Assembly: GCA_902628645.1 (NCBI GenBank) | Contig: CACONS010000006.1 | Location: 1,731 to 65,730, forward strand | DNA: 64,000 nt | Reading direction: 5' to 3' | From: an uncultured Alphaproteobacteria bacterium | GTDB taxonomy: Bacteria > Pseudomonadota > Alphaproteobacteria > HIMB59 > GCA-002718135 | Shown: positions 45,426 to 60,460 of the stretch, piece after piece | How positions within the stretch are numbered: the stretch's first letter is position 1 | Layout of the letters: every line of letters starts with the position of its first letter | Program-made: the position numbers and the translations under genes | The notes under the pieces: generated by a model | Seen by the model: only the letters and a program-made list of their open reading frames with translations | Databases searched by the model: none | What the model was told of the DNA's origin: nothing

Positions 45426-45566
45426 ATTTGCCTCCTTAAAGATACAATCTTGATTATTAAAGTTTTGTATAAATTAGGTCAACATACAAGCTAAAATAAT
45501 AATTTATACGTTGAATTAAAACGTTATATATGTTTTTATATATTAACTTAAGTTTGTTTTTTGTTA

Positions 45567-45580
45567 AATTTCTAGAAATT
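45567..45580. promoter_or_regulatory. perfect 14-bp palindrome AATTTCTAGAAATT upstream of the binding-protein gene; candidate operator
   Basis: Read directly, 46 nt upstream of the ATG at 45626. Confidence 0.35.
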
Positions 45581-45582
45581 AT

Positions 45583-45607
45583 GAACAAAAATCTTAGGTT
45601 TTTGTTC
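45583..45607 (+). promoter_or_regulatory. 5' UTR stem-loop (9-bp stem GAACAAAAA/TTTTTGTTC, loop TCTTAGG) just upstream of the SD of the binding-protein gene
   Basis: Read directly. The SD AAGGGAGG lies at 45614-45621. Confidence 0.4.
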
Positions 45608-45625
45608 AATTATAAGGGAGGACAA

Positions 45626-47254
45626 ATGAAAAATAAGAAAATAGACAAATACATTGAGGAACAGTCTTCAAAGCTAACTAAAGGGCTTATTGATAGAAGA
45701 CAGTTCATGATGTCTGTCCTTGCTACTGGGGTTACGCTACCAATTGCATTATCATTAGCAGATAAAGCAGTTGCAGCTACACCAAAAAAAGGTGGACATT
45801 TAAGATGGGGTAATAGTGCAGCAGATGCTACAGATACTCTTGATCCGGCAACTTACCAGAGCTCATTTATGCAAGCTACTGCTTGGTCATATCAAAACTG
45901 TTTAACAGTTGTTGATTCAGACCATACTATTGTTGGAGAACTTGCAGAGTCCATTGAGTCTGATGATGCTCAAACTTGGGTATACAATCTTCGTAAAGGA
46001 GTTGAATTTCATAATGGTAAATCAATGACTGCAGAAGATGTTGTACTCAATTATCAGTATCACATGAATCCAGATACTGCTTCAGCAGCAGGAGGATTGT
46101 TATCTCAGATTGAAACAGTTTCTGCTGATGGAAATAATAGAGTTATTTTTAAGCTAAAAGGTGCAAATGCCGATTGGCCTGCAATAACTACTGACTATCA
46201 CATTATGATTAAACCAACAAAAGATGGAGTTGTTGATGCTCAATCAACTATTGGTACAGGTCCATACATTATGGATGAGTTTAATCCAGGTGTTGGCGCA
46301 AAATTTGGTAAAAGAAATCCAAATTATTTCAAAGGTGATAGTGTTGCACACTTTGATTCAGTTGAAGTAATCGGAATTAATGATCCTGCTACTAGACAAG
46401 CAGCATTATTAAACGGTGAAATCGATTGGATGAATGGTGTTGATCTTAGAACTGCAAATCTACTAACTAGAAATCCTAGTGTAGAAATAACAGCAGCTTC
46501 TGGATACGCTCACTATACAGCGCCAATGAGATTAAACGTTCCACCGTTTGATAACTTTGATGTTCGTATGGCTATGAAGTTTGCAATCAAAAGACAGGAA
46601 ATTGTTGATAAGATTATGCTTGGATATGGTACTGTTGGTAACGATCATCCGATCTCTACTGCTCACCCATACCACAACAGCGCTTTAGAGCAGAGAGAAT
46701 TCGATGCTGATAAAGCTGCTTATCACTGGAAAAAATCTGGTGTAAGTGGACCAATTGAAATTAGTACTTCAGAGGTTCCTTATGCAGGATGTACAGATGC
46801 AACTAACTTGATAGCAGCATCTGCTCAAGAATGTGGTATCGATCTTCGAGTTAAAAAAGAGCCTGAAGATGGTTACTGGAGTAACGTTTGGAACACTAAA
46901 GGTTTCAGTATGAGTTCTTGGGGTGGAAGACCTACAGAAGATATGATGTGGTCTGCAGCATTCACAGATGACACTGAGTGGAACGAAGCTGCTTGGGGTA
47001 ATCTAGTTCAAACTGATTCAACGGTTCGTTTCAATGAACTTGTTAGATCTGCTAGATCTGAACTTGATGCAGAAAAAAGAAAATCAATGTACTGGGAAGC
47101 ACAAGCTCTTTGTAACTACGATGGTGGTGCAATTGTTTATGCATTTAACCAATATGTTGGTGCTGGTTCTAAAAAACTTGCTCATGGTGAAGATGTTGCT
47201 GGTAACTGGGAAAGTGACGGTAACAAACTATCTGAACGTTGGTGGTTTGCATAA
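45626..47254 (+). CDS. TAT-signal periplasmic solute-binding protein, family 5 (DppA/OppA/opine type)
   Basis: SD AAGGGAGG lies 4 nt upstream of the ATG. Twin-arginine signal LIDRRQFMMSVLATGV...AVA|ATP. SBP_bac_5-like core (GGHLRWG..., LRKGVEFHNGK). GC and codon bias are markedly higher than in neighbouring genes. Confidence 0.88.
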   Translation: MKNKKIDKYIEEQSSKLTKGLIDRRQFMMSVLATGVTLPIALSLADKAVAATPKKGGHLRWGNSAADATDTLDPATYQSSFMQATAWSYQNCLTVVDSDHTIVGELAESIESDDAQTWVYNLRKGVEFHNGKSMTAEDVVLNYQYHMNPDTASAAGGLLSQIETVSADGNNRVIFKLKGANADWPAITTDYHIMIKPTKDGVVDAQSTIGTGPYIMDEFNPGVGAKFGKRNPNYFKGDSVAHFDSVEVIGINDPATRQAALLNGEIDWMNGVDLRTANLLTRNPSVEITAASGYAHYTAPMRLNVPPFDNFDVRMAMKFAIKRQEIVDKIMLGYGTVGNDHPISTAHPYHNSALEQREFDADKAAYHWKKSGVSGPIEISTSEVPYAGCTDATNLIAASAQECGIDLRVKKEPEDGYWSNVWNTKGFSMSSWGGRPTEDMMWSAAFTDDTEWNEAAWGNLVQTDSTVRFNELVRSARSELDAEKRKSMYWEAQALCNYDGGAIVYAFNQYVGAGSKKLAHGEDVAGNWESDGNKLSERWWFA

Positions 47255-47354: not shown

Positions 47355-48284
47355 ATGTTTCAAAAAGATAAGAAGTACATTCTTGATGGTGGTTCAGGGC
47401 AAACATTATTGGAAATGGGTTTAGAAACAACTGGAGATCTTTGGTCCGCACAAGCACTAATTGACAGTAAATATCATTCTCTGGTTTTAAAAATGCATCA
47501 AGATTTTATTAATGCCGGATCTGAAGTAATTGTTACTTCAAATTTTTCAGTTAGAAAAAGAATGTTTGCAAAACATAATTTACTAGATCATTTTGAAGAA
47601 GGCTTAACATATGCTGGAAAAATTGCACAAAAAGCAAAGAAAGAATCAAATAAAAATATTATTGTAGCTGGTTCTTTGCCAAATCAAGGTAATACTTATT
47701 CTCCAATTCAATTTGAAACAGATAAAACAATTTATGATAATTTTTTAGAAATTTGCATCATACTGAATGATTATATAGATATATTCTATTTAGATGTATT
47801 AAGTTCAATAAAAGAAATCAAGTTAGGATTAGAGGCAACAAAAAATTTTAATAAACAAACTTTAGTTGGCGTTCATTTACGATACGATGCAAGGCTTCCA
47901 TCTGGCGAAACTCTACATGAAGTTTTTAATGTAATAAAAGATTATAATTGTTGTGGAATTATTTCAGCTTGTGTATCACCTGAAATTGTTGAATTAAGTT
48001 TACAAGATTTACAAAAGCAAAAACTACCTTATGGTTACAAAATGAATTTATTTAAAGATATGCCAACTAATAATAAAAAAACTTTTTCAAAAGAAGGTTT
48101 TGATGGTGATAATAAATATGAATATGCAGATCCAGTAGAATTACTTGGCTCTAGAGCTTATGAATATAACGAAGATAAATTCAAAAATTTTGTTATTAAA
48201 ACACTAAAGGATAACGTGTCATTGATAGGTGGGTGTTGTGAAATCAAACCGAGACATATTAACAAGCTTAAAAATATCTTTTGA
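47355..48284 (+). CDS. homocysteine S-methyltransferase domain protein (MmuM/BHMT-like)
   Basis: Pfam S-methyl_trans-like layout with Zn ligands in ISACVSP and a C-terminal GGCCEIKPRHI. Confidence 0.8.
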   Translation: MFQKDKKYILDGGSGQTLLEMGLETTGDLWSAQALIDSKYHSLVLKMHQDFINAGSEVIVTSNFSVRKRMFAKHNLLDHFEEGLTYAGKIAQKAKKESNKNIIVAGSLPNQGNTYSPIQFETDKTIYDNFLEICIILNDYIDIFYLDVLSSIKEIKLGLEATKNFNKQTLVGVHLRYDARLPSGETLHEVFNVIKDYNCCGIISACVSPEIVELSLQDLQKQKLPYGYKMNLFKDMPTNNKKTFSKEGFDGDNKYEYADPVELLGSRAYEYNEDKFKNFVIKTLKDNVSLIGGCCEIKPRHINKLKNIF

Positions 48285-48322
48285 TTTTTTTATGTTTTAA
48301 GTGGATATTGTAAATTAATAAA

Positions 48323-49552
48323 ATGAATAATAATTCAAATAATTATCGCTTTGTAATTAAAGCTGTCCCAGTTGGTACTGGAAGATCAGTTGATTTAGCT
48401 AGACCGATGAAAATTCATCCTCTAAGCTACCAAGAATTACATTTAGACCCAGAATATACAAATTATGCAGATGGAAGGTTCACACTTGAAAAATTATCTC
48501 ATGCATCTGCAGATCAAATGTATTGGAAGGCTAGGCAAGCTATTATATTAAGACATACTGGAGAGCATCCTTATCAAATATCTGGTCCAGATGCAGAGAA
48601 ATTATTACAAAGAATATTTCCAAGAGATATCTCTAAGGTAAAAGTTGGAAGATGTTCATATCAATTTGCATGCTATCACGATGGGGGAATGATTTCAGAT
48701 GGATTACTTCTCAAACTAGAAGATAATAAATTTTGGTTTGCTCAAGGTGATGGTCATCTTTTTGGTTGGTATAAAGCTCATTCCACAGATTTAGATGTTG
48801 AAATTAAGGATCCTAATGTTTGGGTTAGCCAAATACAAGGTCCAAAATCTCTGGAGTTATTGAATAAAATTATTGATAAGCCATTTAAAGGAAACTTTAA
48901 ATATTTTGATTGGGAGGAAGTTTCAATTGCTTCCGAAATAGTTATTGTTAGTAGAACAGGTTTTACAAATGAACTAGGATGGGAAATTTATATATCTCCT
49001 GATAATGACGCACGAAAAATAGGAGATTTACTCTTAGAAGAAGGAGAAAAAATGGGAATGCTTCTAACAGCTTCTCCTGGATTTAGAGGAAGAAGAATTG
49101 AGGCAGGATTATTATCAGCAGGAAGAGATTTTACTAAAGATAGAAATCCGTTTTCAGTAGGTTTAGGAAAATTTATAGATTTTAATAAAGGTGATTTTAT
49201 AGGAAGAAAATTTTTACTAAATGCAGATAAAAAGTGTTTAACTTGGGGTATGAGAGTGGAAAATAGTTTTGCATTAGTTGACAGTGATATAATTTTAGAT
49301 GGAAAAAAAATTGGCATAGTAACATCAAGTACTTGGTCACCTTATCAAGAATGTGGAGTTTCAATTGTTCATTTGAATGACTCAAATTTTGGTCCTGGTA
49401 CAATAGTTGACGTTCTATGTGATAATGGCCAAAATAATAAAGGTGAAATATGTAAGCTGCCAATGTATGATGTTAATGGAGATATTCCAAGAGGCATAAA
49501 AGTTGATATACCAAAAGGCTCAGTGCCTTGGAAGGGAATCAATAAAAACTAA
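48323..49552 (+). CDS. GcvT-fold aminomethyltransferase-family protein (THF-dependent demethylase candidate), substrate unknown
   Basis: ISGPDAEKLLQRIFPRD, IQGPKSLELL, and SRTGFTNELGWEIY motifs of the GCV_T fold; 409 aa. Confidence 0.75.
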   Translation: MNNNSNNYRFVIKAVPVGTGRSVDLARPMKIHPLSYQELHLDPEYTNYADGRFTLEKLSHASADQMYWKARQAIILRHTGEHPYQISGPDAEKLLQRIFPRDISKVKVGRCSYQFACYHDGGMISDGLLLKLEDNKFWFAQGDGHLFGWYKAHSTDLDVEIKDPNVWVSQIQGPKSLELLNKIIDKPFKGNFKYFDWEEVSIASEIVIVSRTGFTNELGWEIYISPDNDARKIGDLLLEEGEKMGMLLTASPGFRGRRIEAGLLSAGRDFTKDRNPFSVGLGKFIDFNKGDFIGRKFLLNADKKCLTWGMRVENSFALVDSDIILDGKKIGIVTSSTWSPYQECGVSIVHLNDSNFGPGTIVDVLCDNGQNNKGEICKLPMYDVNGDIPRGIKVDIPKGSVPWKGINKN

Positions 49553-49600: not shown

Positions 49601-50764
49601 ATGAATTATTATATTAATCCGAGTACAAAAATCCATACAATTGAAGATGCAATTAAATTATCTAAAAAAAGATTACCAAAATTAGTTTTTGATTTTATTG
49701 ATGGAGCATCAGGAGATGATAAACTTGCAGAAATAAATAGTAAAGCATTAGATCAAATAAGATTAGAGCCTAAAGTTTTTAGAAATGTTGAAAATAGAAA
49801 TTTAACAAAAAAAATCTTAAATTTTCAATTTGATTATCCTTTTGGTTTTGCTCCTATGGGTATGACCAATTTATCATGGCCTGAAGCAGATAAAATGATA
49901 GCTAAGGAAAGTGCACACTTAAACATACCAACATGTGTTTCTATGGCATCAAGTACCACTTTAGAAGACATGTATAGTTTTTCAGAGGGACATTCTTGGA
50001 TGCAAATATATATTTTTCAAAGTGAAGAATTTATTATGGAGCTTTTAAAAAGAGCTCAAAATATAGGATATAAAGTTTTAATTTTAACAGTTGATGTTCC
50101 AATTTTATCACGAAGAGCTAGAGATGATAGAAATGGATTTGGTTATCCATTTAAAATTGGCCCAAAACAATTTTTAGATTTTGCCCTTCATCCAAGATGG
50201 AGTTTAACAACTTTATTTAAAGGAACTCCTAAGCCAATGAATTATGTAACTTCAAATTCTGGAGAACAAGTTTTTAGAAGAAAAGAAAGTAGAGGTGCAA
50301 CTGATTGGGAAACTCTAAAAAGAATAAGAAATGCATGGAAAGATAAATTAATAATTAAAGGCGTGATGAACACGGAAGATGCAATAAAAATAAAAGAAGC
50401 CGGTGCAGATGCTATTCAAGTATCAAATCATGGTGGAAGACAATTAGATAGTGCCACAGCTGCTATTAATGCACTACCCTTAATACGAAAAGCAGTAGGA
50501 GATAATTTTCCATTAATATTTGATAGTGGAATTAGAAGTGGAAGTGATATTTTAAGAGCTTTAGCATTAGGAGCTGACTTTACTATGTTTGGTAGACCAT
50601 TAATGTATGCTATTGGTGCTGATGGAGCTAGAGGCTTAAGAAGAATAATTAACTTAATTAAAGAAGAACTAAGTACAAACCTTGGTTTAGTGGGATTAAC
50701 GGATATAAATGAAGTAGACAAAAAAATTATAGCAGAGAAAATTTTTAAGGGTATTAATTATTAA
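49601..50764 (+). CDS. FMN-dependent alpha-hydroxy acid dehydrogenase/oxidase (LldD/glycolate-oxidase family)
   Basis: FDFIDGASGDD, LTVDVPILSRRARD, and SNHGGRQLD active-site motifs. Confidence 0.88.
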   Translation: MNYYINPSTKIHTIEDAIKLSKKRLPKLVFDFIDGASGDDKLAEINSKALDQIRLEPKVFRNVENRNLTKKILNFQFDYPFGFAPMGMTNLSWPEADKMIAKESAHLNIPTCVSMASSTTLEDMYSFSEGHSWMQIYIFQSEEFIMELLKRAQNIGYKVLILTVDVPILSRRARDDRNGFGYPFKIGPKQFLDFALHPRWSLTTLFKGTPKPMNYVTSNSGEQVFRRKESRGATDWETLKRIRNAWKDKLIIKGVMNTEDAIKIKEAGADAIQVSNHGGRQLDSATAAINALPLIRKAVGDNFPLIFDSGIRSGSDILRALALGADFTMFGRPLMYAIGADGARGLRRIINLIKEELSTNLGLVGLTDINEVDKKIIAEKIFKGINY

Positions 50765-50765
50765 A

Positions 50766-52508
50766 ATGGGAGATAAAAAAATAAGAGGTGGTGCTTTAGT
50801 GGCGAGAGCATTAAAAGATAAGGGAATTGAAAATGTATTTACTCTTTCTGGTGGTTTTTGTAATCCAGCACTAGAAGGTTTCATGGAGTGTCAAATTAAT
50901 GTTATTAATTGTCCTCATGAACAAATAGCAGGCCATTTAGCTGATGGTCATACAAGGATAACAAGAAAACCATCTGTTTGTATTGTTGGTCCAGAGGGTT
51001 TTGCAAATGCTGTACCTTCTATGATGGAGGCATGGGGTGAAAGATCTCCTGTAATTTTTATAACAGGTTCAAGTAGTTTAAAAAGACAAGGTGCTGGTGG
51101 TTTCAAAGAGATTGATGATGTTACTATTGCAGCACCTTTAACGAAGTATAGTGCAAGTATAACTGAAGGCACTAGAATAAGGGAGTTTGTAGATAAAGCA
51201 TATAGAATTGCAACAAATGGCTATCCTGGTGCAGTACATTTAAGTGTACCAGTAGATATAATGTTTTCATCATTTGCAGATGATGCAGGTTTAGAAGAAA
51301 GACCTTTTACTCATCAAAAAAAACCTTTAGCCAAAGCTTGGCCAGACCCTGAGAGTTTAAATGAAATATTTGATCTAGCAATTAATGCTCAAAAACCAGT
51401 TTTTATTGGAGGGCATGGTGTTTGGTGGTCCAATGCAGAAAAAAAATTAGAGCAAGCTGGTTTTGAATTAAACATTCCAATATTTAATATACCATACCAT
51501 CAAAAGCTTTTAGGCGAAGAGGCAGATACATACATGGGTTTGGCAGATATTCATCAATATCCTCCATCAAAAATGGCACTCAATGAATCAGATTTGGTTC
51601 TTATGATTGGTGCACGTCTTGATAATCAAATGAATTTTGGCAATCCTCCACTTTTTCCAAAAAATACTAAGCTTGTATGTATTAATGGATCACACGAAGA
51701 AATAGAATTAAATAGAGCTGCTGATATTAACTTACTATGTGATCCTAGAGTTTTTTTAGACAAACTCATAGAATTAAAGAAAGATAGTAAATGGAAATTA
51801 AATAATGATTGGTTTGATAAAAATAAAAAAGAGAAAAAAAATTGGATCGATAAAACATTAGACGACTTAAACAAAGAAACTGAAGAGACAAAAAAAAATG
51901 GTGGGAAAATTCATCCTCTTCAGTTAGCTTTAGATGTTCAAGAAGTATTAACTGAAAATGATTGGTTAGTTATTGATGGTGGAAACACACATTTTTGGTC
52001 TGAGATTGCAATTAATATTGCTGGATCAAAAGGAAAAAAACTTGGTGGAATATTACATCCAGGAACATTTAGTATGTTAGGTGTTGGAGTTCCTTTTGCT
52101 GTATCAGCGAAAAACCTTAATCCTAAATCTAATGTAGTTTTAATAAGTGGAGATGGAGCATTTTTATCTGGTGGATTATCAATTGAAGCTGCTTTTCAAG
52201 AAAAAAAACCTATTGTTGTAGTTATAGATAACAATGGAGGTCTTGACTGTATTTCTCAACAACAAGAAAGGTTATTTGAAAGTGGGAAACACTTTGCAAC
52301 TGATTTTAGAGACATTCCATTTCACTCAATTTTTAAAGGTTTTGGAGGGCATGGAGAATTAGTTACTAAAAGAGAAGATTTAGGCCCCGCTTTAAAAAGA
52401 GCGTTAGAAAGTGGTAAAACTGCATGTGTAAATGTTAAGGCTAAAGGTGTTATAAGTCCAATAGTTGCTGCAGTTAGTGATAAAAGAGATAAAGCGTCTA
52501 TAGAGTAA
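50766..52508 (+). CDS. thiamine-diphosphate-dependent enzyme (acetolactate synthase / oxalyl-CoA decarboxylase / 2-hydroxyacyl-CoA lyase superfamily)
   Basis: Catalytic Glu in PHEQIAGHLADG and the ThDP-binding GDGAF...NN motif (SGDGAFLSGG...VIDNNGG); 580 aa. Confidence 0.85.
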   Translation: MGDKKIRGGALVARALKDKGIENVFTLSGGFCNPALEGFMECQINVINCPHEQIAGHLADGHTRITRKPSVCIVGPEGFANAVPSMMEAWGERSPVIFITGSSSLKRQGAGGFKEIDDVTIAAPLTKYSASITEGTRIREFVDKAYRIATNGYPGAVHLSVPVDIMFSSFADDAGLEERPFTHQKKPLAKAWPDPESLNEIFDLAINAQKPVFIGGHGVWWSNAEKKLEQAGFELNIPIFNIPYHQKLLGEEADTYMGLADIHQYPPSKMALNESDLVLMIGARLDNQMNFGNPPLFPKNTKLVCINGSHEEIELNRAADINLLCDPRVFLDKLIELKKDSKWKLNNDWFDKNKKEKKNWIDKTLDDLNKETEETKKNGGKIHPLQLALDVQEVLTENDWLVIDGGNTHFWSEIAINIAGSKGKKLGGILHPGTFSMLGVGVPFAVSAKNLNPKSNVVLISGDGAFLSGGLSIEAAFQEKKPIVVVIDNNGGLDCISQQQERLFESGKHFATDFRDIPFHSIFKGFGGHGELVTKREDLGPALKRALESGKTACVNVKAKGVISPIVAAVSDKRDKASIE

Positions 52509-52511
52509 GTT

Positions 52512-52847
52512 ATGGCAATTTTTTCTACACATTTACTAAACGCAATAGATGGTACGCATGCAAGCGATGTAGAAATTATTATTTATAAAATAAATAATAA
52601 TAACAAAATTGTATTTCTAGAAGAAAAAACAGATAGCTCTGGAAGAATGCTTAAAGAATTTGAATTAACGAAAGAAGATTGTGAAAATGATTATGAAATG
52701 ATAATTAATTCAGGTAAATTTTTTAGAAATACGAGTGAAATAATTAATTCAATAAGTGTTAAATTTAAAATGAAAGATCCTCTTAAAAAATATCATATAC
52801 CTCTAATTATTTCACCAAATGGGTACTCAATATGGTGGTCAAAATAA
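52512..52847 (+). CDS. transthyretin-like protein (HIU-hydrolase fold) with a non-canonical C-terminus
   Basis: STHLLN...G, TDSSGR, and YHIPLIISPNGYS are conserved, but the protein ends IWWSK instead of the HIU-hydrolase signature YRGS. Confidence 0.7.
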   Translation: MAIFSTHLLNAIDGTHASDVEIIIYKINNNNKIVFLEEKTDSSGRMLKEFELTKEDCENDYEMIINSGKFFRNTSEIINSISVKFKMKDPLKKYHIPLIISPNGYSIWWSK

Positions 52848-52848
52848 A

Positions 52849-53970
52849 ATGAGTAATTCAGGATTAAACATGTCCAGACGTATTAGGAGGACCCCCTATA
52901 CAGAGAAAGTAATTGAAGCTGGTGTAAGTGGTTTTACTGTAGTTAATCATATGCTTCTTCCAAAATCATATAAAGCAACTGTAGAAGAAGATTATTGGCA
53001 TTTATCTAAAGATACTCAAATTTGGGATGTTTCATGTCAACGTCAGGTTCAAATAATAGGAGAAGATGCTAAAAAATTAATACAACTCATGTCTCCAAGA
53101 TCAATAAAAGATATGCCTATTGGTAAATGTTACTATTATCCAATGATTGATGAAAATGCAGGGATTATAAATGATCCTGTACTTTTAAAATTAAGTGAAA
53201 ATAAATATTGGCTATCAGTTGCAGACTCAGATGTTCTTCTTTGGGCAAAAGGATTGGCTGTAGGAAGAAATTTTAAAGTTGATATTATAGAGCCTGATGT
53301 TTACCCTCTAGCAATTCAAGGTCCAAAATCTGAAGAATTAATGTCATCAATATTTGGTGAAAAAATTAAAAAATTAAAATTCTTTCATTTTTCTTTTTTT
53401 GAATTTGATGGAACAAAGCAAATAATTGCAAGATCAGGATATAGCAAACAAGATGGTTTTGAGATTTATCTTAAAGGTTTTAGTTTAGGAAAAAAACTTT
53501 GGGAAACTATTTGGGAAGCAGGAAAAGGTTTTAATATTTCTCCTGGATGTCCAAATTTAATTGATAGAATAGAAGGTGGTTTATTATCCTATGGTAATGA
53601 ATTTACTTTAGAAAATAATCCAATTGAATGTGGATTTGATAATTATTGTAGCAATTTATCTCATGATTTCATTGGAAAAAATGCACTAAAAAAAATATTA
53701 AAAAATGGAATAGAAAAAAAAATAAAAGGAATTACTTTTGATGGGTCACCAACTCCTCCGTGCACAATACCTTTTCCTGTATACTCAAAAAATAGATTTC
53801 AAATTGGTAATATCACCTCTGGTATTTATTCACCATTTTTAAAAACCAATATTGGGTTATCAATGGTTGATAGAGATTATTGGAATGATGGGCAGGATGT
53901 TATCGTATTAACACCAGACAATATTGAGAGAAAAGGTAAAGTTCGCTCACTACCTTTTAATTATTCTTAA
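52849..53970 (+). CDS. dmdA: DmdA-family (dimethylsulfoniopropionate demethylase-like) GcvT-fold methyltransferase
   Basis: SRRIRRTP, VVNHMLLP, IWDVSCQRQV, CYYYPMIDENAGIINDPVLLKL, IQGPKSEELM, ARSGYSKQDGFEIY, and GCPNLIDRIEGGLLSYGN are colinear with remembered Ruegeria and Pelagibacter DmdA. The ATG at 52849 lies 1 nt after the upstream stop. Confidence 0.75.
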   Translation: MSNSGLNMSRRIRRTPYTEKVIEAGVSGFTVVNHMLLPKSYKATVEEDYWHLSKDTQIWDVSCQRQVQIIGEDAKKLIQLMSPRSIKDMPIGKCYYYPMIDENAGIINDPVLLKLSENKYWLSVADSDVLLWAKGLAVGRNFKVDIIEPDVYPLAIQGPKSEELMSSIFGEKIKKLKFFHFSFFEFDGTKQIIARSGYSKQDGFEIYLKGFSLGKKLWETIWEAGKGFNISPGCPNLIDRIEGGLLSYGNEFTLENNPIECGFDNYCSNLSHDFIGKNALKKILKNGIEKKIKGITFDGSPTPPCTIPFPVYSKNRFQIGNITSGIYSPFLKTNIGLSMVDRDYWNDGQDVIVLTPDNIERKGKVRSLPFNYS

Positions 53971-53971
53971 A

Positions 53972-54418
53972 ATGAGTCATTCAATCGAATTAAAGTGGGA
54001 ATTAGGAGATCAAAAACTCGAATTTGGAAAATACTTAACTGATCACACAGTAATGCTTAACGAAAATGTATCTATTGATGCGGGATCATCTCCAGATTAT
54101 GGAGGAAGCGAAACTAATATTAATCCAGAGCAAAAACTAGCTGCAGCTGTAAGTAGTTGTTTTATGATGACGTTTTTAGCTTTAGCTGCAAAAATGAAAT
54201 GGCCAGTTATTAATTACAAAGATAAAGCAATTTCATATTTAGGAAAAAATGCAGAGGGAAGAATGTACGTCAACAAAATAGAGCTAAATCCAGCTATAGT
54301 ATTTGAAGATAATTTTAATATTTCTGATGAAGAAATGAAAAAGATGAAAGAGAGATCACATAAGTATTGTTTTATCGCTAATTCACTATCAAAAGATGTA
54401 GAAATTCAAATCAATTAA
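53972..54418 (+). CDS. OsmC/Ohr-family protein (thiol peroxidase fold)
   Basis: Both conserved Cys contexts are present (VSSCFMMTF and HKYCFIANS). The ATG at 53972 lies 1 nt after the dmdA-like stop. Confidence 0.8.
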   Translation: MSHSIELKWELGDQKLEFGKYLTDHTVMLNENVSIDAGSSPDYGGSETNINPEQKLAAAVSSCFMMTFLALAAKMKWPVINYKDKAISYLGKNAEGRMYVNKIELNPAIVFEDNFNISDEEMKKMKERSHKYCFIANSLSKDVEIQIN

Positions 54419-55210
54419 ATGAATTTTAATCTAATATTAAACGAAAAAAATAATAATATTTTTAATATTATTCTTAATGACCAGAAAAACCAAAATACTT
54501 TAAGCGAAAACATGATCAATGAATTAACATCAGCACTAGATATTGCTGATAAAGATAATGAAGTAAAAGTCATTATTTTATCATCAAAAGGTAATATTTT
54601 TTGTGCAGGACATAATTTAAAAGATTTAAATTCACAAAGATTGCAAAATGACAAAGGTGAAAGCTATTTTAAAAAAATATTTCAAATGTGCTCTCAACTT
54701 ATGCTGAAAATTAATAAAAATAATAAACCAGTTATAGCTATGGTTGATGGTATAGCTACTGCAGCAGGCTGTCAGTTAATTTCTAGCTGTGATTTAGCTT
54801 ACTCAAGTAGCAGAGCAAAATATGCAACTCCTGGTGTTAATATTGGATTATTTTGTTCTACACCAATGGTTCCATTATCAAGAACTGTAGGTAAAAAGCA
54901 AGCTATGGAAATGCTTCTCACTGGAGATCTTATAGATGCAAATAAAGCATTAAGGATTGGCTTAATAAATGATGTCTTTGAAGAAGATAGTTTAAAAGAA
55001 AATGTATTTCAAATTGCTAAAAAAATATCGTCTAAATCTTCTAATACTATTAAAATTGGTAAAGAAGCTTTTTACAAACAAAAAGATATGAAACTAGAAG
55101 ACGCATATAATTTTACTTCAAATGTAATGACGGAAAATATGTTAAATGATGATTCCAGAGAAGGTATTGAAGCTTTTTTAGAAAAGAGAGAGCCAAACTG
55201 GAAAGAATAA
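54419..55210 (+). CDS. enoyl-CoA hydratase/isomerase (crotonase) family protein, ECHDC3-like
   Basis: Oxyanion-hole region FCAGHNLKDL and MVDGIATAAGCQL. Starts at the nucleotide after the OsmC-like stop. Confidence 0.85.
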   Translation: MNFNLILNEKNNNIFNIILNDQKNQNTLSENMINELTSALDIADKDNEVKVIILSSKGNIFCAGHNLKDLNSQRLQNDKGESYFKKIFQMCSQLMLKINKNNKPVIAMVDGIATAAGCQLISSCDLAYSSSRAKYATPGVNIGLFCSTPMVPLSRTVGKKQAMEMLLTGDLIDANKALRIGLINDVFEEDSLKENVFQIAKKISSKSSNTIKIGKEAFYKQKDMKLEDAYNFTSNVMTENMLNDDSREGIEAFLEKREPNWKE

Positions 55211-55220: not shown

Positions 55221-56693
55221 TTAAAATGGGTTTGGTTGAGATGGTTTGGTAGCTAACCATGTAGATTTAGTCTGCATGTAACTTTGCATTCCCTCCCATC
55301 CATTTTCACGACCGTATCCTGATTGCTTGAAACCTCCAACTGGAGATTGAGTAGAAGCATTAAAATAATTATTTATATAAACAGTTCCAGCCTCTATCTT
55401 ATCTGCTAAACGTATAGCTTTATTGGTATCCTTAGTCCAAATACCTGCTGCAAGTCCATAAATAGTATTGTTTGCAATTTTAATTACTTCATCTTCATCA
55501 TCCCAAGATTGTATTGAGGCGACAGGTCCAAATACTTCATTTTGAGCTAAATCATCTTCATTTGGAACATTATCAAAAATAGTTGGTCCAATATAGTACC
55601 CTTCAGATTTTTGTTCTTTTCTTCCATCAATTAATAATTTTAAACCTCTTTTTTCAGCCGCTTCTATCTTAGATAAAATAAAATCATATTGCTCTTTATT
55701 TGCTATAGGTCCTATTTGTGTTGCTGTATCATTTGGGTTACCAACTTTAGCTTTTTTAACAACTTCTAATAAATTTTGAGTAAATTTATCTTTTATATCT
55801 TTATGCACTAATATTCTTGATCCTGAAATACAGCTATGACCTGAAACTGGAAAGATTCCTGAAACAACTCCATTAACTGATAAAGTTAAATCAGCATCTT
55901 TAAATATAATTTGTGGTGATTTTCCTCCTAGCTCCATAATAATAGGTTTAACGTTTTTGGATGCACTTAAACTAGCTGCACGCCCCCCTTTTGTTCCGCC
56001 TGTAAAACTTATCATTCTAACATCTTGGTGTTCAATAAGAGGTGCACCAGTGGTAGGGCCAAAACCAGTAACAACATTAATCAAGCCTTCAGGAAGATCG
56101 GCTTCTTCTAAAATTTTCATTAACTCTAATGTAGAGCACGATGCTCTTTCTGAAGGTTTAATTACAACAGTATTGCCTGCTGCAATTGCTGGTGCCAATT
56201 TCCAGATTAATGTTCCAATTGGTGAGTTCCAAGGTAGAATTAGTGCAACAACTCCAAATGGTTCCCATTTTAAATAATTATGCATATTTGGAACCTCTGA
56301 AGGTATCAATCTACCTTCATACTTGTCACACATACCTGCATAATAATAAAAACTCTCAGTCTGCCAGCTAGTTAAAGAAGGAGTGATATTTTTTGGAAGT
56401 TTGCCGTTGTCTTTAGTTTCTATTTTTCCAATGCGTTCAGCATTTTTAGCAATAATATCTCCAATTCTAGTTAATGTTCTTCCTCTTTCTGCTGGATACA
56501 TTTTAGCATAAGGACCATCATAATAAGCACGTTTAGCAGATGATACTGCAAGATTAATATCTTTTTGATTACAGTCAGGGACCTTTGCCCATACTTTACC
56601 TATAGATGGATCCTCACTTTCAAAATATTTTTCAGATGAAGGGTCATGCCATTTATTTCCCGCATAAAATTTGTAGGTTTGAATTTCAGACAT
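55221..56693 (-). CDS. NAD(P)+-dependent aldehyde dehydrogenase (BetB-like size and class)
   Basis: ELGGKSP and catalytic Cys in GHSCISGSR; 490 aa. Confidence 0.88.
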   Translation of the reverse strand: MSEIQTYKFYAGNKWHDPSSEKYFESEDPSIGKVWAKVPDCNQKDINLAVSSAKRAYYDGPYAKMYPAERGRTLTRIGDIIAKNAERIGKIETKDNGKLPKNITPSLTSWQTESFYYYAGMCDKYEGRLIPSEVPNMHNYLKWEPFGVVALILPWNSPIGTLIWKLAPAIAAGNTVVIKPSERASCSTLELMKILEEADLPEGLINVVTGFGPTTGAPLIEHQDVRMISFTGGTKGGRAASLSASKNVKPIIMELGGKSPQIIFKDADLTLSVNGVVSGIFPVSGHSCISGSRILVHKDIKDKFTQNLLEVVKKAKVGNPNDTATQIGPIANKEQYDFILSKIEAAEKRGLKLLIDGRKEQKSEGYYIGPTIFDNVPNEDDLAQNEVFGPVASIQSWDDEDEVIKIANNTIYGLAAGIWTKDTNKAIRLADKIEAGTVYINNYFNASTQSPVGGFKQSGYGRENGWEGMQSYMQTKSTWLATKPSQPNPF

Positions 56694-56738
56694 AATTTAT
56701 TTAAACTTAAATATTTTCATTGGTCAACTTATTTGTGA

Positions 56739-58379
56739 TTAATTAATTTTTAATATCATATCTGATGCTTTTTCTGCTAACATAATTACAGATGCATTTA
56801 TATTTCCACTTATCATATCTGGGAAAGAAGATGCATCTACTACTCTCAGATTGTCTATTCCTCTAACTTTAAGCTGATTATCAAGTACAGCCATTTTGTT
56901 ATTACTGGAACCCATTGCGCAAGTAGATGCAGGATGATGGCCTGTTTGTACATGATTTCGAACTGACTCTTTTAAATCCTGATCACTTTTTATTTTTTTT
57001 CCTGGAAGTAATTCTTCCGAAACAATTTTTGCTAAACTGGGTTTTGACAATACTTCTCTTGTATGCTTCATCCCCTCTATCATATCTTCCATATCAGATG
57101 GATCGATGAACCAATTTGGATTTATATTAAGTTCATCATTAGGATTTGAGCTTTTAAGTTTTACACTTCCTGTGCTCTTTGGTCTTAATAAATTAATTTG
57201 AAAGTGTAATCCTGGAAAAGCTTTTTTACCTCTAGAAAAAAATAATGAACCAAAATTTAATAAATTATCTAAACTCATAGACCAGTTATCTTTTTCTTCT
57301 TTAAAACACATAGGTGTCATGAACACTTGTATTTCAGGCATATCTTTTTCTCTTATTGCATGAAATAGATTTGTTGACCAAAAAGGAGCTGCAGCTAATC
57401 CTTGTTTAAATAAAATATATTTTAATCCTACAATAATAGCTCTATCGATCCTTTGATATTTAGAGAAACTTAAATTGTTGTTTTGAAAAGCCCAATTCAT
57501 TGGCATAACAGGATGATCGTGAAGGTTTTCACCTACTCCAGGTAAGTTAATTAATAATTCTATATTTTTTTCTTTTAAATGTTCTTCTGGACCAATTCCT
57601 GACAACATTAAACATTTGGGACTACCGAATGCTCCTAAAGATAATATTACCTCTGATGATGCATAAACTTCACCATTTGATAAAAGTAATCCTTTAGCTT
57701 TATTTTTCTCAATTAAAATTTTTATTACAGATGTATTTTTATAAATTGTTAAGTTGCTAGGTTTAAATTTCAAATAAGCTTCTGCAGATGATTGTCTTTT
57801 TCCCTTCCATACTTTAACATCATATCGGCCTACTCCATTTAGATTGCCGTTGTAAAAATCATTATTAATTTCTGCCCCAGCTTCAACACATGCATCAATA
57901 AATGCTTTATCGATAGAATTGTAATTACCAGCTGGTGTAAGTTTTAAAGGACCTGAATGTGAGTGATATTCATTTTTTTCTCTATGAAAAGCTGAGGCAG
58001 ATTTTTTGAAATATGGCAGTACTTCATTAAAAGACCAACCCTCTAAGCCCTTTTGTCTCCATCTGTTAAAATCACCTGATGCACCTCTCATGTAAATCAT
58101 ACCGTTTAAAAGAGAAGATCCTCCTAGTCCTTTACCTCTAGGATACAAAATTTTTCTATTATCTAAAGAAGGTTGAGGTATTGACTCAAAACCCCAATCA
58201 AATTTAGGGTTTCCAAAAATGTATCCGTTACCACCGGGCATTTGAGTGAATAAACTTTTTCCTGACCCCCCTGCTTCTATTAGTAATACCTTTATATCTT
58301 TATTTTCAGATAATCTTGAGGCTAATGTACAGCCAGCAGAACCTCCTCCTGCTATTATATAGTCAAATGTTTTTTTCAT
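56739..58379 (-). CDS. GMC-family flavin oxidoreductase (alcohol/choline dehydrogenase-like, more divergent than the one at 39249)
   Basis: DYIIAGGGSAGCTLASRL, GKGLGGSSLLNG, NLHDHP, and GHHPASTCAMG motifs. Confidence 0.85.
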   Translation of the reverse strand: MKKTFDYIIAGGGSAGCTLASRLSENKDIKVLLIEAGGSGKSLFTQMPGGNGYIFGNPKFDWGFESIPQPSLDNRKILYPRGKGLGGSSLLNGMIYMRGASGDFNRWRQKGLEGWSFNEVLPYFKKSASAFHREKNEYHSHSGPLKLTPAGNYNSIDKAFIDACVEAGAEINNDFYNGNLNGVGRYDVKVWKGKRQSSAEAYLKFKPSNLTIYKNTSVIKILIEKNKAKGLLLSNGEVYASSEVILSLGAFGSPKCLMLSGIGPEEHLKEKNIELLINLPGVGENLHDHPVMPMNWAFQNNNLSFSKYQRIDRAIIVGLKYILFKQGLAAAPFWSTNLFHAIREKDMPEIQVFMTPMCFKEEKDNWSMSLDNLLNFGSLFFSRGKKAFPGLHFQINLLRPKSTGSVKLKSSNPNDELNINPNWFIDPSDMEDMIEGMKHTREVLSKPSLAKIVSEELLPGKKIKSDQDLKESVRNHVQTGHHPASTCAMGSSNNKMAVLDNQLKVRGIDNLRVVDASSFPDMISGNINASVIMLAEKASDMILKIN

Positions 58380-58409
58380 TTATTTAAATTAAAAAGAAAT
58401 AATTTTTTA

Positions 58410-59270
58410 TTAGTTATTTTTTCTTTCTCTATAAGCTATAAAAATTCCTGTACTAATTATTATTGTTCCTCCTAGATAAATACTTAAAGTTGGTACTTCT
58501 GCATAAATTAAATAACCCATTACTCCAACAAAAATAAAAGATGAGTATTCGAATGGAGAAGTAATTGCAACATCAGCATATTTAGCTGCCTGTGACATAA
58601 ACAAATGCCCAAGTGAGCCCATTATGCCTAAACTCATAGCAAAAATTAATTGTACCATACTAGGCATAATAAAATTTTCAGGGAAAAATATAATTGACGT
58701 AATTAATAATGCAAAAGAATAATAAAATACAATTGCAACACTAGAATCAGTACTCATTACAGATCTAGTTGATAAATAAACAGAAGCCATAAAAGCTGCA
58801 GATATTAAAGGATAGAGTGTTTCTAATTTGAACAAGTCAGTACCGGGCTTAACAATTATTAATACACCTATGAAACCAATTAATATTGCAGTGGTTCTAA
58901 ATATGCCAATTCTCTCTCCAAGTATTGGTACAGCAAGAAAGGCAGCAATGATTGGTGCAGAATGTGCTATAGCAATATTTTCTGAAAGCATTAAATGATT
59001 AATTCCATAAATATAGAATACAACACAAGCAGAAGCAGAAAGAGCTCGTATAGCATGCCCAAATGGTTTTTTAGTTTTTAATTTATCAAATCCAAAATAC
59101 ATTGCCATGAAAGTTGCAATGATACTTCCACTGAGTGCTCGAAAAAATATTGATTCCCATACAGGAAAATGAAAACTTAAATATTTATAAGTGATATCAT
59201 TTATACTAAGACAAAACATGGACAGCAACATGAAAGAAATTCCCAAGAGACTATTATTTTTCGATTTCAT
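58410..59270 (-). CDS. EamA/DMT-family permease
   Basis: 10 predicted TM helices in two EamA repeats. First gene of the EamA-GMC-ALDH minus-strand array. Confidence 0.8.
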   Translation of the reverse strand: MKSKNNSLLGISFMLLSMFCLSINDITYKYLSFHFPVWESIFFRALSGSIIATFMAMYFGFDKLKTKKPFGHAIRALSASACVVFYIYGINHLMLSENIAIAHSAPIIAAFLAVPILGERIGIFRTTAILIGFIGVLIIVKPGTDLFKLETLYPLISAAFMASVYLSTRSVMSTDSSVAIVFYYSFALLITSIIFFPENFIMPSMVQLIFAMSLGIMGSLGHLFMSQAAKYADVAITSPFEYSSFIFVGVMGYLIYAEVPTLSIYLGGTIIISTGIFIAYRERKNN

Positions 59271-59320
59271 TAATTAATTAAATATACTAAGATAATTTAT
59301 TCAGATATAAATATTTCAAA

Positions 59321-60460
59321 ATGAATAACAAATATCATGTAAAAAAAATAGAAAAAAAGAATGATCATTTAAGTATTTTATGGAAAGATAATTTTGAAAG
59401 TAAATTTCATTTTATGTGGTTAAGAGATAATTGTCCAACAGCAATACATCCTACTGCAAATATGCGAGTCTTTAATATTTTAACTGTTAGTAAAAATATA
59501 TTTCCTAAAAATTATAAAATTGAAAAAAATAAACTCAATATTGATTGGAGTGAAGGTGATCATAGTAGCAAATTCAATTTAAAATGGTTAAGAGATCATT
59601 GTTATACTGAAATAAATAATCGAAAATATAAATCACCTTATGTTTTTTGGGATGGTAAATTAAAAAAAAATTTAAAGAAAATTATTGTTGATCATAATAG
59701 TGTAATAAAAAATGACAAACATTTAAGTAAATGGTTAAATCTACTTCATACTTATGGTTTTGCATTAATCAAAAATGCGCCAACTAGAAAAAAATCAGCA
59801 TTCAAAATATTAAATAGAATAAGCCATCATAGAGAAACATTTTTTGGTACACCATTTGAAGTAATTAATATTCCAAAACCAAATAATACAGCTTATACGG
59901 CAGATGCTCTGAGAAATCATACTGACTTACCTTATTTTGAATATGCACCTGGATATCAGTTTCTTCATTGTTTAGTAAATGATGCTTATGGCGGATTATC
60001 ATCTGTTGTAGATGGTTTTACAGTAGCAAATTATTTAAAAAAAAATGAAAAAGATGTTTTTAATATTTTAACTAAAACTCACGTTAAATTCAAAGATACT
60101 GATTATACTCAAAAAGCTATCAGAATTCTTCACTCACCAATTATAACACTTACAAAAGATAATGATTTCAATGATATTAGATTTAGTATGGCTGCAATGG
60201 GAGCAGTTGATGTTGATCCAAAAAAAATGAAAAAATTTTATGAAGCCTACCTATATTTTGCATCATTGCTTCAAAATAATAAATTTAAAATTGATTTTAG
60301 ATTAGAGGCAGGTGATATATTTTGTTTTAATAATAGAAGAGTATTACATGGGAGGACTGAATTTGATCCAAACTCTGGAAATAGACATCTTCAAGGATAT
60401 TATATTGAAAGAGATGAAATAATAGGAAGATTAAATTATTTTAATAATATTAAAGTTTAG
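59321..60460 (+). CDS. Fe(II)/2-oxoglutarate dioxygenase of the gamma-butyrobetaine hydroxylase / TMLH / TmpA family
   Basis: N-terminal DUF971-like WLRDNCP... domain, NNTAYTADALRNHTDLPYF...GYQFLHC (HxD), and VLHGRTEF (distal His). Colinear with remembered human BBOX1. Confidence 0.8.
   Translation: MNNKYHVKKIEKKNDHLSILWKDNFESKFHFMWLRDNCPTAIHPTANMRVFNILTVSKNIFPKNYKIEKNKLNIDWSEGDHSSKFNLKWLRDHCYTEINNRKYKSPYVFWDGKLKKNLKKIIVDHNSVIKNDKHLSKWLNLLHTYGFALIKNAPTRKKSAFKILNRISHHRETFFGTPFEVINIPKPNNTAYTADALRNHTDLPYFEYAPGYQFLHCLVNDAYGGLSSVVDGFTVANYLKKNEKDVFNILTKTHVKFKDTDYTQKAIRILHSPIITLTKDNDFNDIRFSMAAMGAVDVDPKKMKKFYEAYLYFASLLQNNKFKIDFRLEAGDIFCFNNRRVLHGRTEFDPNSGNRHLQGYYIERDEIIGRLNYFNNIKV

Follow-up and report, generated by a model that had tools for sequence, protein, structure and literature searches.

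A DmdA-clade demethylase gene of SAR11 bacteria is linked to genes for a 2-hydroxy-acid flavoenzyme, a thiamine diphosphate enzyme and a transthyretin-like protein

We analyzed a stretch of 64,000 nucleotides (the window) of contig CACONS010000006.1 from an uncultured alphaproteobacterium, in which six genes follow one another on the plus strand at positions 49601-55210. The locus appears to be a dimethylsulfoniopropionate (DMSP) demethylase operon, which carries an apparently undescribed, widely conserved three-gene module and an undescribed pair of OsmC and crotonase genes. The three-gene module (module A) encodes a flavin mononucleotide (FMN)-dependent enzyme, a thiamine diphosphate (ThDP) enzyme and a transthyretin-like protein. 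It is followed by a DmdA-clade gene, which is common to module A and to module B with its OsmC-crotonase pair. As judged from gene order across genomes, the six genes are best described as the junction of two recurrent modules sharing the DmdA gene, and not as one six-gene unit. The reading that we prefer, at slightly less than an even chance, is that the demethylase is the center of a composite operon for organosulfur catabolism, in which module A would work like the mandelate pathway and module B would act on a CoA thioester. The six genes are as follows.

49601-50764, plus strand: module A, gene 1, putative FMN 2-hydroxy-acid dehydrogenase (PF01070)
50766-52508, plus strand: module A, gene 2, ThDP enzyme (three TPP domains)
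52512-52847, plus strand: module A, gene 3, protein like transthyretin and 5-hydroxyisourate hydrolase (HIUase) (PF00576)
52849-53970, plus strand: putative DmdA-clade demethylase, common to modules A and B (NF009133)
53972-54418, plus strand: module B, OsmC-family two-cysteine protein (PF02566)
54419-55210, plus strand: module B, ECHDC3-type crotonase of the PRK08139 family (NF006008)

A first-pass annotation, made from the letters and open reading frames (ORFs) of the window, had placed the six genes in these families, and Pfam, NCBIfam and PDB comparisons agree with all six assignments at the family level. It had also described six same-strand ORFs with intergenic gaps of 1, 3, 1, 1 and 0 nt, and the same values were obtained when the coordinates were recomputed. 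The window has a GC content of 29.4% and densely packed genes, and its closest relatives are single-cell and metagenome genomes of Pelagibacterales. Gaps of 3 nt or less occur in 15 of the 40 same-strand neighbor pairs of the window, and in 10 of 35 pairs when the six genes are left out. Genes on opposite strands (convergent) also abut at 0-1 nt. Since tight gaps are common throughout the window, spacing alone is weak evidence of coupling in this genome. The five consecutive gaps of 3 nt or less are the longest such run in the window (rough expectation, less than 0.1). Promoter and terminator scans of this AT-rich DNA gave no more sites than were found in shuffled sequence, and an Rfam scan of the whole window for S-adenosylmethionine (SAM) or other riboswitches detected one tRNA only.

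These features could be explained without any functional coupling, if unrelated neighbors were packed together by SAR11 streamlining and then kept by the general conservation of gene order. The tight gaps among the other genes, the uninformative promoter and terminator scans, and the variation of the downstream end of the array between SAR11 lineages, as described below, are all consistent with this explanation. Therefore, gene order was compared within SAR11 and beyond it.

Exact-sequence look-ups of the window's DmdA and ThDP proteins gave no match, and the locus context was taken from 97%-identical relatives. In a scan with one genome per species, at least 532 loci with relatives of the ThDP enzyme were found. 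The best 80 (82-97% identity), all from Pelagibacterales, were examined, and the SAR11 adjacency counts are based on these 80 and two metagenome loci (82 in all). The transthyretin-like gene lies directly 3' of the ThDP gene in 82 of 82 loci, and the flavoenzyme gene lies directly 5' of the ThDP gene in 75 of 75. The DmdA gene is found directly 3' of the transthyretin-like gene in 76 of 77 loci. Upstream of the cassette, a second GcvT-family gene (AMT2) is present in 65 of 67 loci, and it keeps this place in SAR11 only.

Downstream of DmdA, OsmC and crotonase genes are present in 38 loci, which belong only to the window's own lineage. A thiolase gene occupies this place in 33 loci of a Pelagibacteraceae lineage that includes HIMB1709 and Uisw_090, sometimes with a class IV aminotransferase gene after it. 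The single six-gene unit of the first-pass annotation is therefore not supported. In the Pelagibacteraceae version, an S51 peptidase gene (dipeptidase E/cyanophycinase family) also lies between AMT2 and the flavoenzyme gene (35 loci; L061 8156-8845, L072 8148-8843).

Outside SAR11, the order FMN_dh-ThDP-transthyretin-like-DmdA was found in Arenicellales nBUS_48, in Pelagibius sp. Alg239-R121 and in a 2.6-Mb contig of 63% GC, with unrelated flanks in each case. Furthermore, a metagenome scan by the WW-type C-terminal pattern of the transthyretin-like protein, with SAR11 variants excluded, returned 80 loci with GC from 0.30 to 0.69. The ThDP gene is directly 5' of the transthyretin-like gene in 49 of 50 of these non-SAR11 loci, the flavoenzyme gene precedes the ThDP gene in 33 of 35, and a DmdA-clade gene directly follows the transthyretin-like gene in 43 of 57. 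The FMN_dh and ThDP genes overlap by 4 nt in three high-GC lineages, and LysR regulators adjoin the trio. The most faithful partner of the ThDP gene is the transthyretin-like gene.

The link of DmdA to the three proteins of module A was thus borne out, since the four genes stand in the same order, with other flanks, in both Alpha- and Gammaproteobacteria. The six-gene order had been a candidate for recurrence in SAR11 and other marine bacteria. The four-gene core does recur in this way, but the full order was found only in the window's SAR11 lineage. We regard the cross-taxon synteny as decisive support for the linkage, which would then be no accident of SAR11 packing. Against an absence of coupling stand the four-gene core in Gammaproteobacteria and other Alphaproteobacteria (45-65% GC, unrelated flanks) and a DmdA-family/OsmC/crotonase trio within a mobile island on Roseobacter plasmids, which is described below. 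The cross-class synteny already seems to refute that explanation largely for the four-gene core, and we consider it very improbable.

The exceptions to the four-gene order were also analyzed (loci are given by L numbers). In L095, a PF02574 homocysteine S-methyltransferase gene takes the DmdA position and is accompanied by a gene of the beta-hydroxyacid dehydrogenase family (NAD_binding_2); the S-methyltransferase is of a different subfamily from the PF02574 protein of the window (29% identity). In one exception group, the DmdA position is taken by a 2-oxo-acid reductase of the ApbA/PanE type. In two lineages (L086 and L096), the trio adjoins genes for a tripartite ATP-independent periplasmic (TRAP) transporter and a LysR regulator and lacks a demethylase gene beside it. 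Reductase genes beside the trio are of the 2-Hacid_dh family in Arenicellales and of the ApbA/PanE type in L105, L118, L143 and near the Pelagibius cassette. TRAP systems are next to the trio in L084, L086, L096 and L146, and SBP_bac_5 ATP-binding cassette (ABC) systems in the window, L085 and L095. A methyl-removing enzyme of either of two unrelated families follows the trio, and therefore a methyl-onium group is suggested for the substrate in most hosts. The adjacent TRAP or Dpp-type ABC transporters would likewise imply a carboxylate substrate.

Two further genes were observed at these loci. In place of DmdA, L086 carries a gene (12179-13318) for a 379-aa protein that has no Pfam match and a signal- or transmembrane-like N-terminus. 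Just upstream of the S-methyltransferase-bearing cassette, L095 carries a gene for a small Cupin_2 protein (7148-7519); the cupin fold is shared by several DMSP lyases.

A lineage of about 31% GC (L133 53-9309 and L157 43-9724; also L132, L150, L154, L159 and L167) retains the pair of ThDP and WW-transthyretin genes in a setting that has neither flavoenzyme nor DmdA. A CoA-transferase of class III or a dioxygenase of the PhyH family is encoded beside the pair. The neighborhood also encodes a thiolase, a sulfatase, a TauE sulfite exporter, TctAB, two dioxygenases of the TauD type and a 139-aa protein without a Pfam match. The setting of the pair in this lineage is an organosulfonate or sulfate-ester context.

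The window demethylase passes the DmdA equivalog model NF009133 with 528 bits (cutoff 410). With the same model, the other cassette copies score 536-580, Phaeobacter inhibens DmdA 600 and HTCC1062 DmdA 637, and the non-DmdA paralogues 359-379. The protein is 49% identical to HTCC1062 DmdA (3TFH) and 44-46% identical to Roseobacter DmdA, for which the dmdC-dmdD-dmdB-dmdA cluster of P. inhibens pPGA1_262 was used as the reference. The cassette demethylases of Arenicellales, Pelagibius and the 63%-GC contig are mutually 52-72% identical. In a small neighbor-joining distance tree (356 columns, 100 bootstraps, AMT2 as the outgroup), bootstrap values were 89% for the cassette clade, 77% for this clade with Roseobacter DmdA, and 100% when HTCC1062 DmdA was also included. 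The GFEIY motif of the window protein keeps the folate-contact Glu and Tyr (E204 and Y206 of 3TFH).

These results show that the window demethylase is a genuine member of the DmdA clade, branching between two validated DmdA lineages, and not an outlying "DmdA-like" protein. Because it is nested within a clade bounded by two biochemically validated DmdAs, its substrate is most likely DMSP. Given this placement, the earlier proposal of demethylation first and oxidation second is not favored over the reverse order. The window protein has Tyr at the position of W197 of 3TFH, the residue named W171 in PMC7487153, and this was considered as a marker of non-DMSP specificity. This was rejected because P. 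inhibens DmdA, from the dmdC-dmdD-dmdB-dmdA cluster, also has Tyr there. Two SAR11-type dmdA clades, C/2 and D, are found in different genotypes (PMC7370799).

The start of the DmdA gene can be placed at either of two ATG codons. The ORF can be extended upstream to 52819, and public gene calls in close relatives use that ATG (383 aa), with which the gene would overlap the transthyretin-like gene by 29 nt. The ATG at 52849 (373 aa) gives the N-terminus MSNSGLNMSRRIRRTPY (MSNSGLNMSRR...), which aligns with homologues from four other taxa. This alignment supports 52849 as the probable start.

The flavoenzyme matches FMN_dh (PF01070) with 392 bits, and the SNHGGRQLD motif that had been noted in this LldD-like enzyme is present. 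Its scores are under every curated cutoff for LldD, lactate oxidase and related enzymes (LldD, 219 vs. 550; PRK11197, 263 vs. 376; L-lactate oxidase, 165 vs. 646), and among its PDB neighbors lactate oxidase, (S)-mandelate dehydrogenase and glycolate oxidase are about equally similar. Eight cassette orthologues show no variation at His277, Arg280, Lys253, Asp165, Arg172 and Tyr137. Where lactate oxidase has Tyr40, the cassette flavoenzymes mostly have Phe, and the protein is colinear with full-length (S)-mandelate dehydrogenase of the membrane type. Thus, the flavoenzyme is probably an (S)-2-hydroxy-acid dehydrogenase of the LldD/mandelate-dehydrogenase type, with the long architecture rather than that of the oxidases.

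The ThDP enzyme possesses three TPP domains, and its score is under the cutoff of every NCBIfam model (2-hydroxyacyl-CoA lyase (HACL), 242 vs. 600; oxalyl-CoA decarboxylase (OXC), 207 vs. 557; best model of the acetohydroxyacid synthase (AHAS) type, 274 vs. 587). The catalytic glutamate of the HEQ motif is retained, as the first-pass annotation had stated, and corresponds to Glu52 in PHEQ. The nearest PDB chains are 8vzc, 7pt2 and 2ag0 (about 30% identity), and the closest characterized or solved relatives are the 2-hydroxyacyl-CoA lyases/synthases (HACL/S), 2-hydroxyisobutyryl-CoA lyase (HICL), OXC and benzaldehyde lyase. Chains of glyoxylate carboligase (Gcl), an enzyme that characteristically lacks the catalytic Glu (Glu-to-Val), match at 99 bits and over residues 11-364 only. 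Assignment of the ThDP enzyme as Gcl or AHAS was rejected on the basis of the sub-cutoff scores, the partial Gcl match and the presence of Glu52.

The ThDP orthologues are 63-84% identical across bacterial classes. Only three other full-length 50%-identity clusters, among 1.84 billion representatives, are more than 35% identical to the enzyme. Since the more distant relatives P0123 (48%) and P0272 (53%) lack the cassette, the family boundary lies at about 60% identity, and the family is narrow and highly conserved. The initial protein search gave near-identical SAR11 sequences only; the diversity was obtained from a representative library and a search seeded with the 48% relative. In a search of a plasmid collection, neither a ThDP orthologue nor a WWS-type transthyretin was detected.

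A flavoenzyme with about equal likeness to glycolate, lactate and mandelate oxidoreductases could also belong to a general 2-hydroxy-acid module for glycolate/glyoxylate or lactate/pyruvate, comparable to glycolate oxidase with glyoxylate carboligase. DmdA would then be co-located for the joint use of DMSP C1 units and glyoxylate C2 units (glycine/serine supply) and would share no substrate with the trio. In some lineages, the partner families do include glyoxylate/hydroxypyruvate reductase (2-Hacid_dh) and tartronate-semialdehyde reductase (NAD_binding_2), and in L086 and L096 no demethylase accompanies the trio. Furthermore, HIUase-type proteins belong to a ureide route that ends in glyoxylate, and SAR11 can replace glycine with glycolate. 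However, the catalytic Glu is kept and the Gcl match is weak and partial. In most lineages, methyl-removing enzymes of two unrelated families take the same position, which is unlikely to result from loose convenience. TRAP and Dpp-type ABC systems are not the usual carriers of glycolate or lactate, and so narrow and conserved a family as that of the ThDP enzyme would not be expected of a generic pyruvate enzyme. We consider a general module quite unlikely.

The nearest relatives of the ThDP enzyme also raise the possibility of CoA-dependent alpha-oxidation. In this route, the HACL-like ThDP enzyme would cleave a 2-hydroxy (onium) acyl-CoA into formyl-CoA and an aldehyde one carbon shorter. The crotonase, thiolase or class III CoA-transferase would supply or use the thioesters, and DmdA would act on the shortened product or on the precursor. 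The known systems (PhyH with HACL/S; OXC with formyl-CoA transferase) contain the closest characterized ThDP relatives, HACL/S, HICL and OXC being the closest among both solved structures and curated families, and their net chemistry is the same, since a 2-hydroxy acid loses C1. The ThDP-transthyretin pair of the low-GC lineage has a PhyH or class III CoA-transferase gene directly before the ThDP gene, and a thiolase gene is adjacent. In Arenicellales, a CoA_transf_3 gene is found five genes upstream, and SAR11 cassettes end in crotonase or thiolase. Class III CoA-transferases, moreover, act on onium carboxylates (CaiB and DddD).

In HACL/S, R260 and R400 bind acyl-CoA (PMC11271303). By a mapping with two independent alignments, which is moderately uncertain (about 30% identity, near indels), R260 corresponds in the cassette ThDP family to an invariant Asp within the strictly conserved GLAD[IV]HQY motif, and R400 to Glu or an aliphatic residue (I/L/V). 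Of the ADP-binding pair of HACL/S, R156 is changed to Tyr and R276 is kept. The loss of both acyl-CoA arginines would speak against an acyl-CoA substrate, as do the HACL and OXC scores, which are far under their cutoffs. Moreover, most cassettes use an FMN dehydrogenase (33/35 and 75/75 loci), which requires the 2-hydroxy acid in its free form and for which the alpha-oxidation route has no use, and the cassette contains no conserved gene for a CoA ligase or transferase. Alpha-oxidation is therefore unlikely in our judgment.

The transthyretin-like protein belongs to PF00576, the fold family of HIUase (PucM and HiuH). The site residues His7, Arg45 and His95 of HIUase are kept. However, the score with the HIUase model TIGR02962 is 68.8 bits, under the cutoff of 87.45, and the YRGS C-terminus of HIUase is replaced by a YS[IV]WWS type, which reads YSIWWSK in the window; WWS is present in all cassette copies. 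Assignment as HIUase was rejected for these two reasons. The protein also differs from HIUase in that it has no purine-catabolic context and its gene lies directly downstream of the ThDP gene. It may be a hydrolase-type enzyme with a new (WWS) site, or a small subunit of the ThDP enzyme as in AHAS.

The OsmC protein matches Pfam OsmC (PF02566) with 57.6 bits, and both Cys residues named in the first-pass annotation are present (SSCF and KYCF). In comparison with the OsmC/Ohr thiol peroxidases, it thus has the family domain and both Cys, but the peroxiredoxin subfamily models are below cutoff (38 vs. 166, 35 vs. 89 and 30 vs. 86), and the closest structure, 2d7v (VCA0330 type), is uncharacterized. 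The crotonase passes NF006008 (PRK08139) with 369 bits (cutoff 313). Its best PDB match is human ECHDC3 (2vx2), with 235 bits as compared with 116 bits for 5xzd ("Enoyl-CoA hydratase"), which we take to be AcuH, and it is 23% identical to P. inhibens DmdD. On these values, assignment as a DmdD or AcuH orthologue was rejected. The crotonase may still act like DmdD.

The absence of dmdB and dmdC from the window was confirmed by tblastn and Pfam. P. inhibens DmdB, DmdC and DmdD gave no tblastn match at 1e-8 in the window or in the 82 SAR11 loci. No AMP-binding or acyl-CoA dehydrogenase domain was detected by Pfam in 30 window ORFs, which included all those of at least 430 aa except the two largest (803 and 890 aa); shorter ORFs were covered by tblastn only.

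Searches with the window DmdA and OsmC proteins detected the order Lrp, GcvT-like, OsmC, enoyl-CoA hydratase and acyl-CoA synthetase on at least six Roseobacter plasmids, including Loktanella salsilacus plas1 and P. inhibens P30, P51 and P88. Four loci with the island are located as follows.

L091 6001-10148: Roseobacter plasmid island
L092 6992-11078: Roseobacter plasmid island
L093 7001-11099: Roseobacter plasmid island
L099 5823-9901: Roseobacter plasmid island

The islands share the order of a DmdA-family gene, OsmC and an ECHDC3-type hydratase with the window, and are 47-52% identical to it in OsmC and 51-52% in the hydratase (47-52% for the two proteins together). They differ in that the GcvT-like gene is a non-DmdA paralogue (379 bits, cutoff 410), and a DmdB-like synthetase (47-50% identity to DmdB) and an Lrp/AsnC regulator are added. 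The islands contain no acyl-CoA dehydrogenase and no module A or flavoenzyme, and integrases or insertion sequence (IS) elements are often found at their flanks. We found no characterization of this island in the literature. It may be a DmdC-independent demethylation route for another methyl donor.

Since the OsmC-crotonase pair recurs on these plasmids with a DmdA-family gene and a DmdB-like ligase, OsmC and the crotonase belong to the demethylase/CoA branch and not to the flavoenzyme. OsmC had been proposed to remove peroxide made by the flavin enzyme. This role is not supported, because the pair occurs on the Roseobacter plasmids without a flavoenzyme and the flavoenzyme of the window is of the dehydrogenase type.

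In the described DMSP pathway, dmdA works with dmdB, dmdC and dmdD/acuH, and a flavoenzyme, a ThDP enzyme, a transthyretin-like protein and OsmC have no place (PMC6850173, PMC3160333). In the SAR11 papers on C1 and sulfur metabolism that were consulted, dmdA appears only with dmdB, dmdC and mhpC, and OsmC only with bhmT (PMC3160333, PMC5069961). The known dmd clusters (dmdC-dmdD-dmdB-dmdA of P. inhibens pPGA1_262 and dmdA-mhpC-dmdB-dmdC of HTCC1062) resemble the array in the DmdA-clade gene and in the crotonase-superfamily gene that comes after it. In contrast, the window has no dmdB or dmdC nearby, its crotonase is of the ECHDC3 type, and three upstream genes and OsmC are extra. Literature searches for this gene combination found no description, in agreement with the first-pass statement that no described pathway couples DmdA with a 2-hydroxyacid oxidase and a ThDP enzyme.

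Module A most likely works like the mandelate pathway (MdlB, FMN (S)-mandelate dehydrogenase; MdlC, ThDP benzoylformate decarboxylase; MdlD, aldehyde dehydrogenase; MdlA, racemase), which is alike in its enzyme logic and in the pairing of a membrane-type FMN 2-hydroxy-acid dehydrogenase with a ThDP enzyme near an aldehyde dehydrogenase. The closest solved relatives of the cassette enzymes include (S)-mandelate dehydrogenase and benzaldehyde lyase, and an MR_MLE-family gene follows the cassette in L085. However, the cassette ThDP enzyme is not an orthologue of benzoylformate decarboxylase, the linkage to a sulfonium demethylase and a transthyretin-like protein sets the cassette apart, and it bears no sign of an aromatic substrate. 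By analogy, the FMN dehydrogenase would oxidize a free 2-hydroxy acid to the 2-oxo acid, the ThDP enzyme would remove C1 from the latter to give an aldehyde, and a dehydrogenase would oxidize the aldehyde to the acid one carbon shorter. In the window, the last enzyme would be the convergent aldehyde dehydrogenase (ALDH), which resembles betaine-aldehyde dehydrogenase (BADH) and is listed below. The pairing of the FMN dehydrogenase with the ThDP enzyme appears to follow mandelate-pathway logic, and this is the robust part of our proposal. The 2-oxo acid as the hub finds support in the intact FMN_dh catalytic set, the recurrent D-specific 2-hydroxy/2-oxo-acid reductases and the absence of both acyl-CoA-binding arginines of HACL/S from the ThDP family.

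Because DmdA, and once an S-methyltransferase, nearly always follows module A, a methyl-sulfonium (onium) 2-hydroxy acid is the probable substrate. The most economical chemical idea, and a plausible candidate substrate, is a methylated-sulfonium 2-hydroxy acid, 4-dimethylsulfonio-2-hydroxybutyrate (DMSHB) or 4-methylthio-2-hydroxybutyrate (MTHB). DMSHB is the committed intermediate of the main route of DMSP synthesis and is oxidatively decarboxylated to DMSP in algae (PMC10989797). It has all of the substrate properties deduced above. The idea gains some support from the S-methyltransferase swap in L095, the D-specific reductases and the adjacent carboxylate transporters. In its specific form, we regard the assignment as unlikely.

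In the route that we favor, DMSHB would be converted to 4-dimethylsulfonio-2-oxobutyrate, DMSP-aldehyde and DMSP, and DmdA would then form methylmercaptopropionate (MMPA) and 5-methyl-tetrahydrofolate. We favor it because DmdA stays on its known substrate and the gene order is followed. The mirror order is also possible, in which DMSHB would be converted to MTHB and 4-methylthio-2-oxobutyrate (MTOB), and then to methional, MMPA or methionine. More speculatively, OsmC and the crotonase of module B would act on the CoA thioester of the demethylated product, for example in the release of methanethiol from MMPA-CoA or methylthioacryloyl-CoA (MTA-CoA).

Several points weigh against the proposed operon and its substrate. 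The substrate is named by no gene of the cassette. Algal DMSHB and MTHB are reportedly the D-enantiomers, and FMN_dh enzymes are L-specific. DMSHB is a minor metabolite, which is awkward beside a cassette that is present in more than 500 SAR11 species. No aldehyde dehydrogenase is conserved in the cassette; ALDH, short-chain dehydrogenase/reductase (SDR) and NAD_binding_2 genes are present in some lineages only. The nearest characterized relatives of the ThDP enzyme are acyl-CoA lyases/decarboxylases and not 2-oxo-acid decarboxylases, and the lineage of about 31% GC, with PhyH, class III CoA-transferase and thiolase instead of FMN_dh, resembles CoA-dependent alpha-oxidation. Several lineages have the trio with no adjacent demethylase (L086, L096, L118 and L143), and the transthyretin-like protein has no role in the proposed scheme. 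In addition, SAR11 synteny by itself carries little weight, since gene order in this group is highly syntenic overall.

A further step beyond the composite operon would be that the trio is the enzyme set for the oxidative decarboxylation of DMSHB to DMSP in the main DMSP pathway, a reaction for which we know of no assigned gene. It would be run catabolically into DmdA in SAR11 and other marine Proteobacteria, with the transthyretin-like protein as a partner or subunit of the ThDP enzyme. We consider this improbable, to the same degree as the general 2-hydroxy-acid module.

The genes that flank the array in the window are as follows.

41910-45389, transcribed divergently from the substrate-binding protein gene: ABC permeases and ATPase of the SBP_bac_5 system (Pfam)
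45530..47254, plus strand: ABC substrate-binding protein (SBP_bac_5; PF00496), first gene of the same-strand array
47355..48284, plus strand: homocysteine S-methyltransferase family, BHMT/MmuM-like (PF02574; NCBIfam equivalogs all below cutoff)
48323..49552, plus strand: AMT2, GcvT-family aminomethyltransferase, not DmdA (GCV_T and GCV_T_C)
55221..56693, minus strand: aldehyde dehydrogenase, BADH-like, convergent (PF00171; BADH model TIGR01804, 465 bits vs. cutoff 669)

AMT2 scores 175 bits with NF009133 (cutoff 410) and is 26% identical to HTCC1062 DmdA. PDB searches with the transporter binding proteins gave no clue to the ligand. When the window was compared with L001-L046, the S-methyltransferase was 63-68% and AMT2 about 78% identical, and the flanking SBP, ThDP, DmdA and OsmC proteins were 97-100% identical; only L033 matches at 96%. 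The region 47355-49552, which adjoins the cassette on its upstream side, looks like a local allelic replacement or a hot spot of recombination.

The convergent ALDH at 55221-56693, which the first-pass annotation had included in its route, is a real gene, and no SAR11 lineage other than that of the window has it. It belongs to a quaternary-amine-type neighborhood at 55221-61892, conserved only in that lineage. This neighborhood consists of the BADH-like ALDH (minus strand), a choline-dehydrogenase-like glucose-methanol-choline (GMC) oxidoreductase (minus), an EamA transporter (minus), a gamma-butyrobetaine-hydroxylase-like dioxygenase (GBBH-like_N and TauD, plus) and a second ALDH (minus). A TauD-family gene is also found near the Arenicellales cassette. 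At 37411-38850 and 39249-41623 (both minus), upstream of the ABC transporter genes, a short-chain acyl-CoA regulator (helix-turn-helix (HTH), M78 and ScfRs domains) is encoded near a second GMC oxidoreductase and an SDR.

The main route by which bacteria consume DMSP is central to sulfur fluxes in the sea; dmdA serves as its standard marker gene, and SAR11 holds much of the gene pool. A DmdA clade is embedded in a conserved three-enzyme cassette, which is present in representatives of several hundred SAR11 species and also in marine Alpha- and Gammaproteobacteria unrelated to them. Hence, for a large share of marine dmdA genes, the dmdABCD scheme of the textbooks is incomplete. The cassette points to a further branch of marine organosulfur metabolism, and hosts that can be cultured are available (HIMB1709, Uisw_090 and Pelagibius sp. 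Alg239-R121). New enzymology is suggested by a ThDP family that resembles HACL without its CoA site and by a transthyretin/HIUase subfamily with a new C-terminal signature, and the OsmC-crotonase pair may take the place of DmdC/DmdD. If the demethylase acts on a substrate other than DMSP, environmental surveys based on dmdA would need reinterpretation. If the trio is indeed the enzyme set that converts DMSHB to DMSP, it would be a new, globally abundant organosulfur sink, and a ThDP enzyme would have, in the transthyretin-like protein, a partner or subunit of a new kind.

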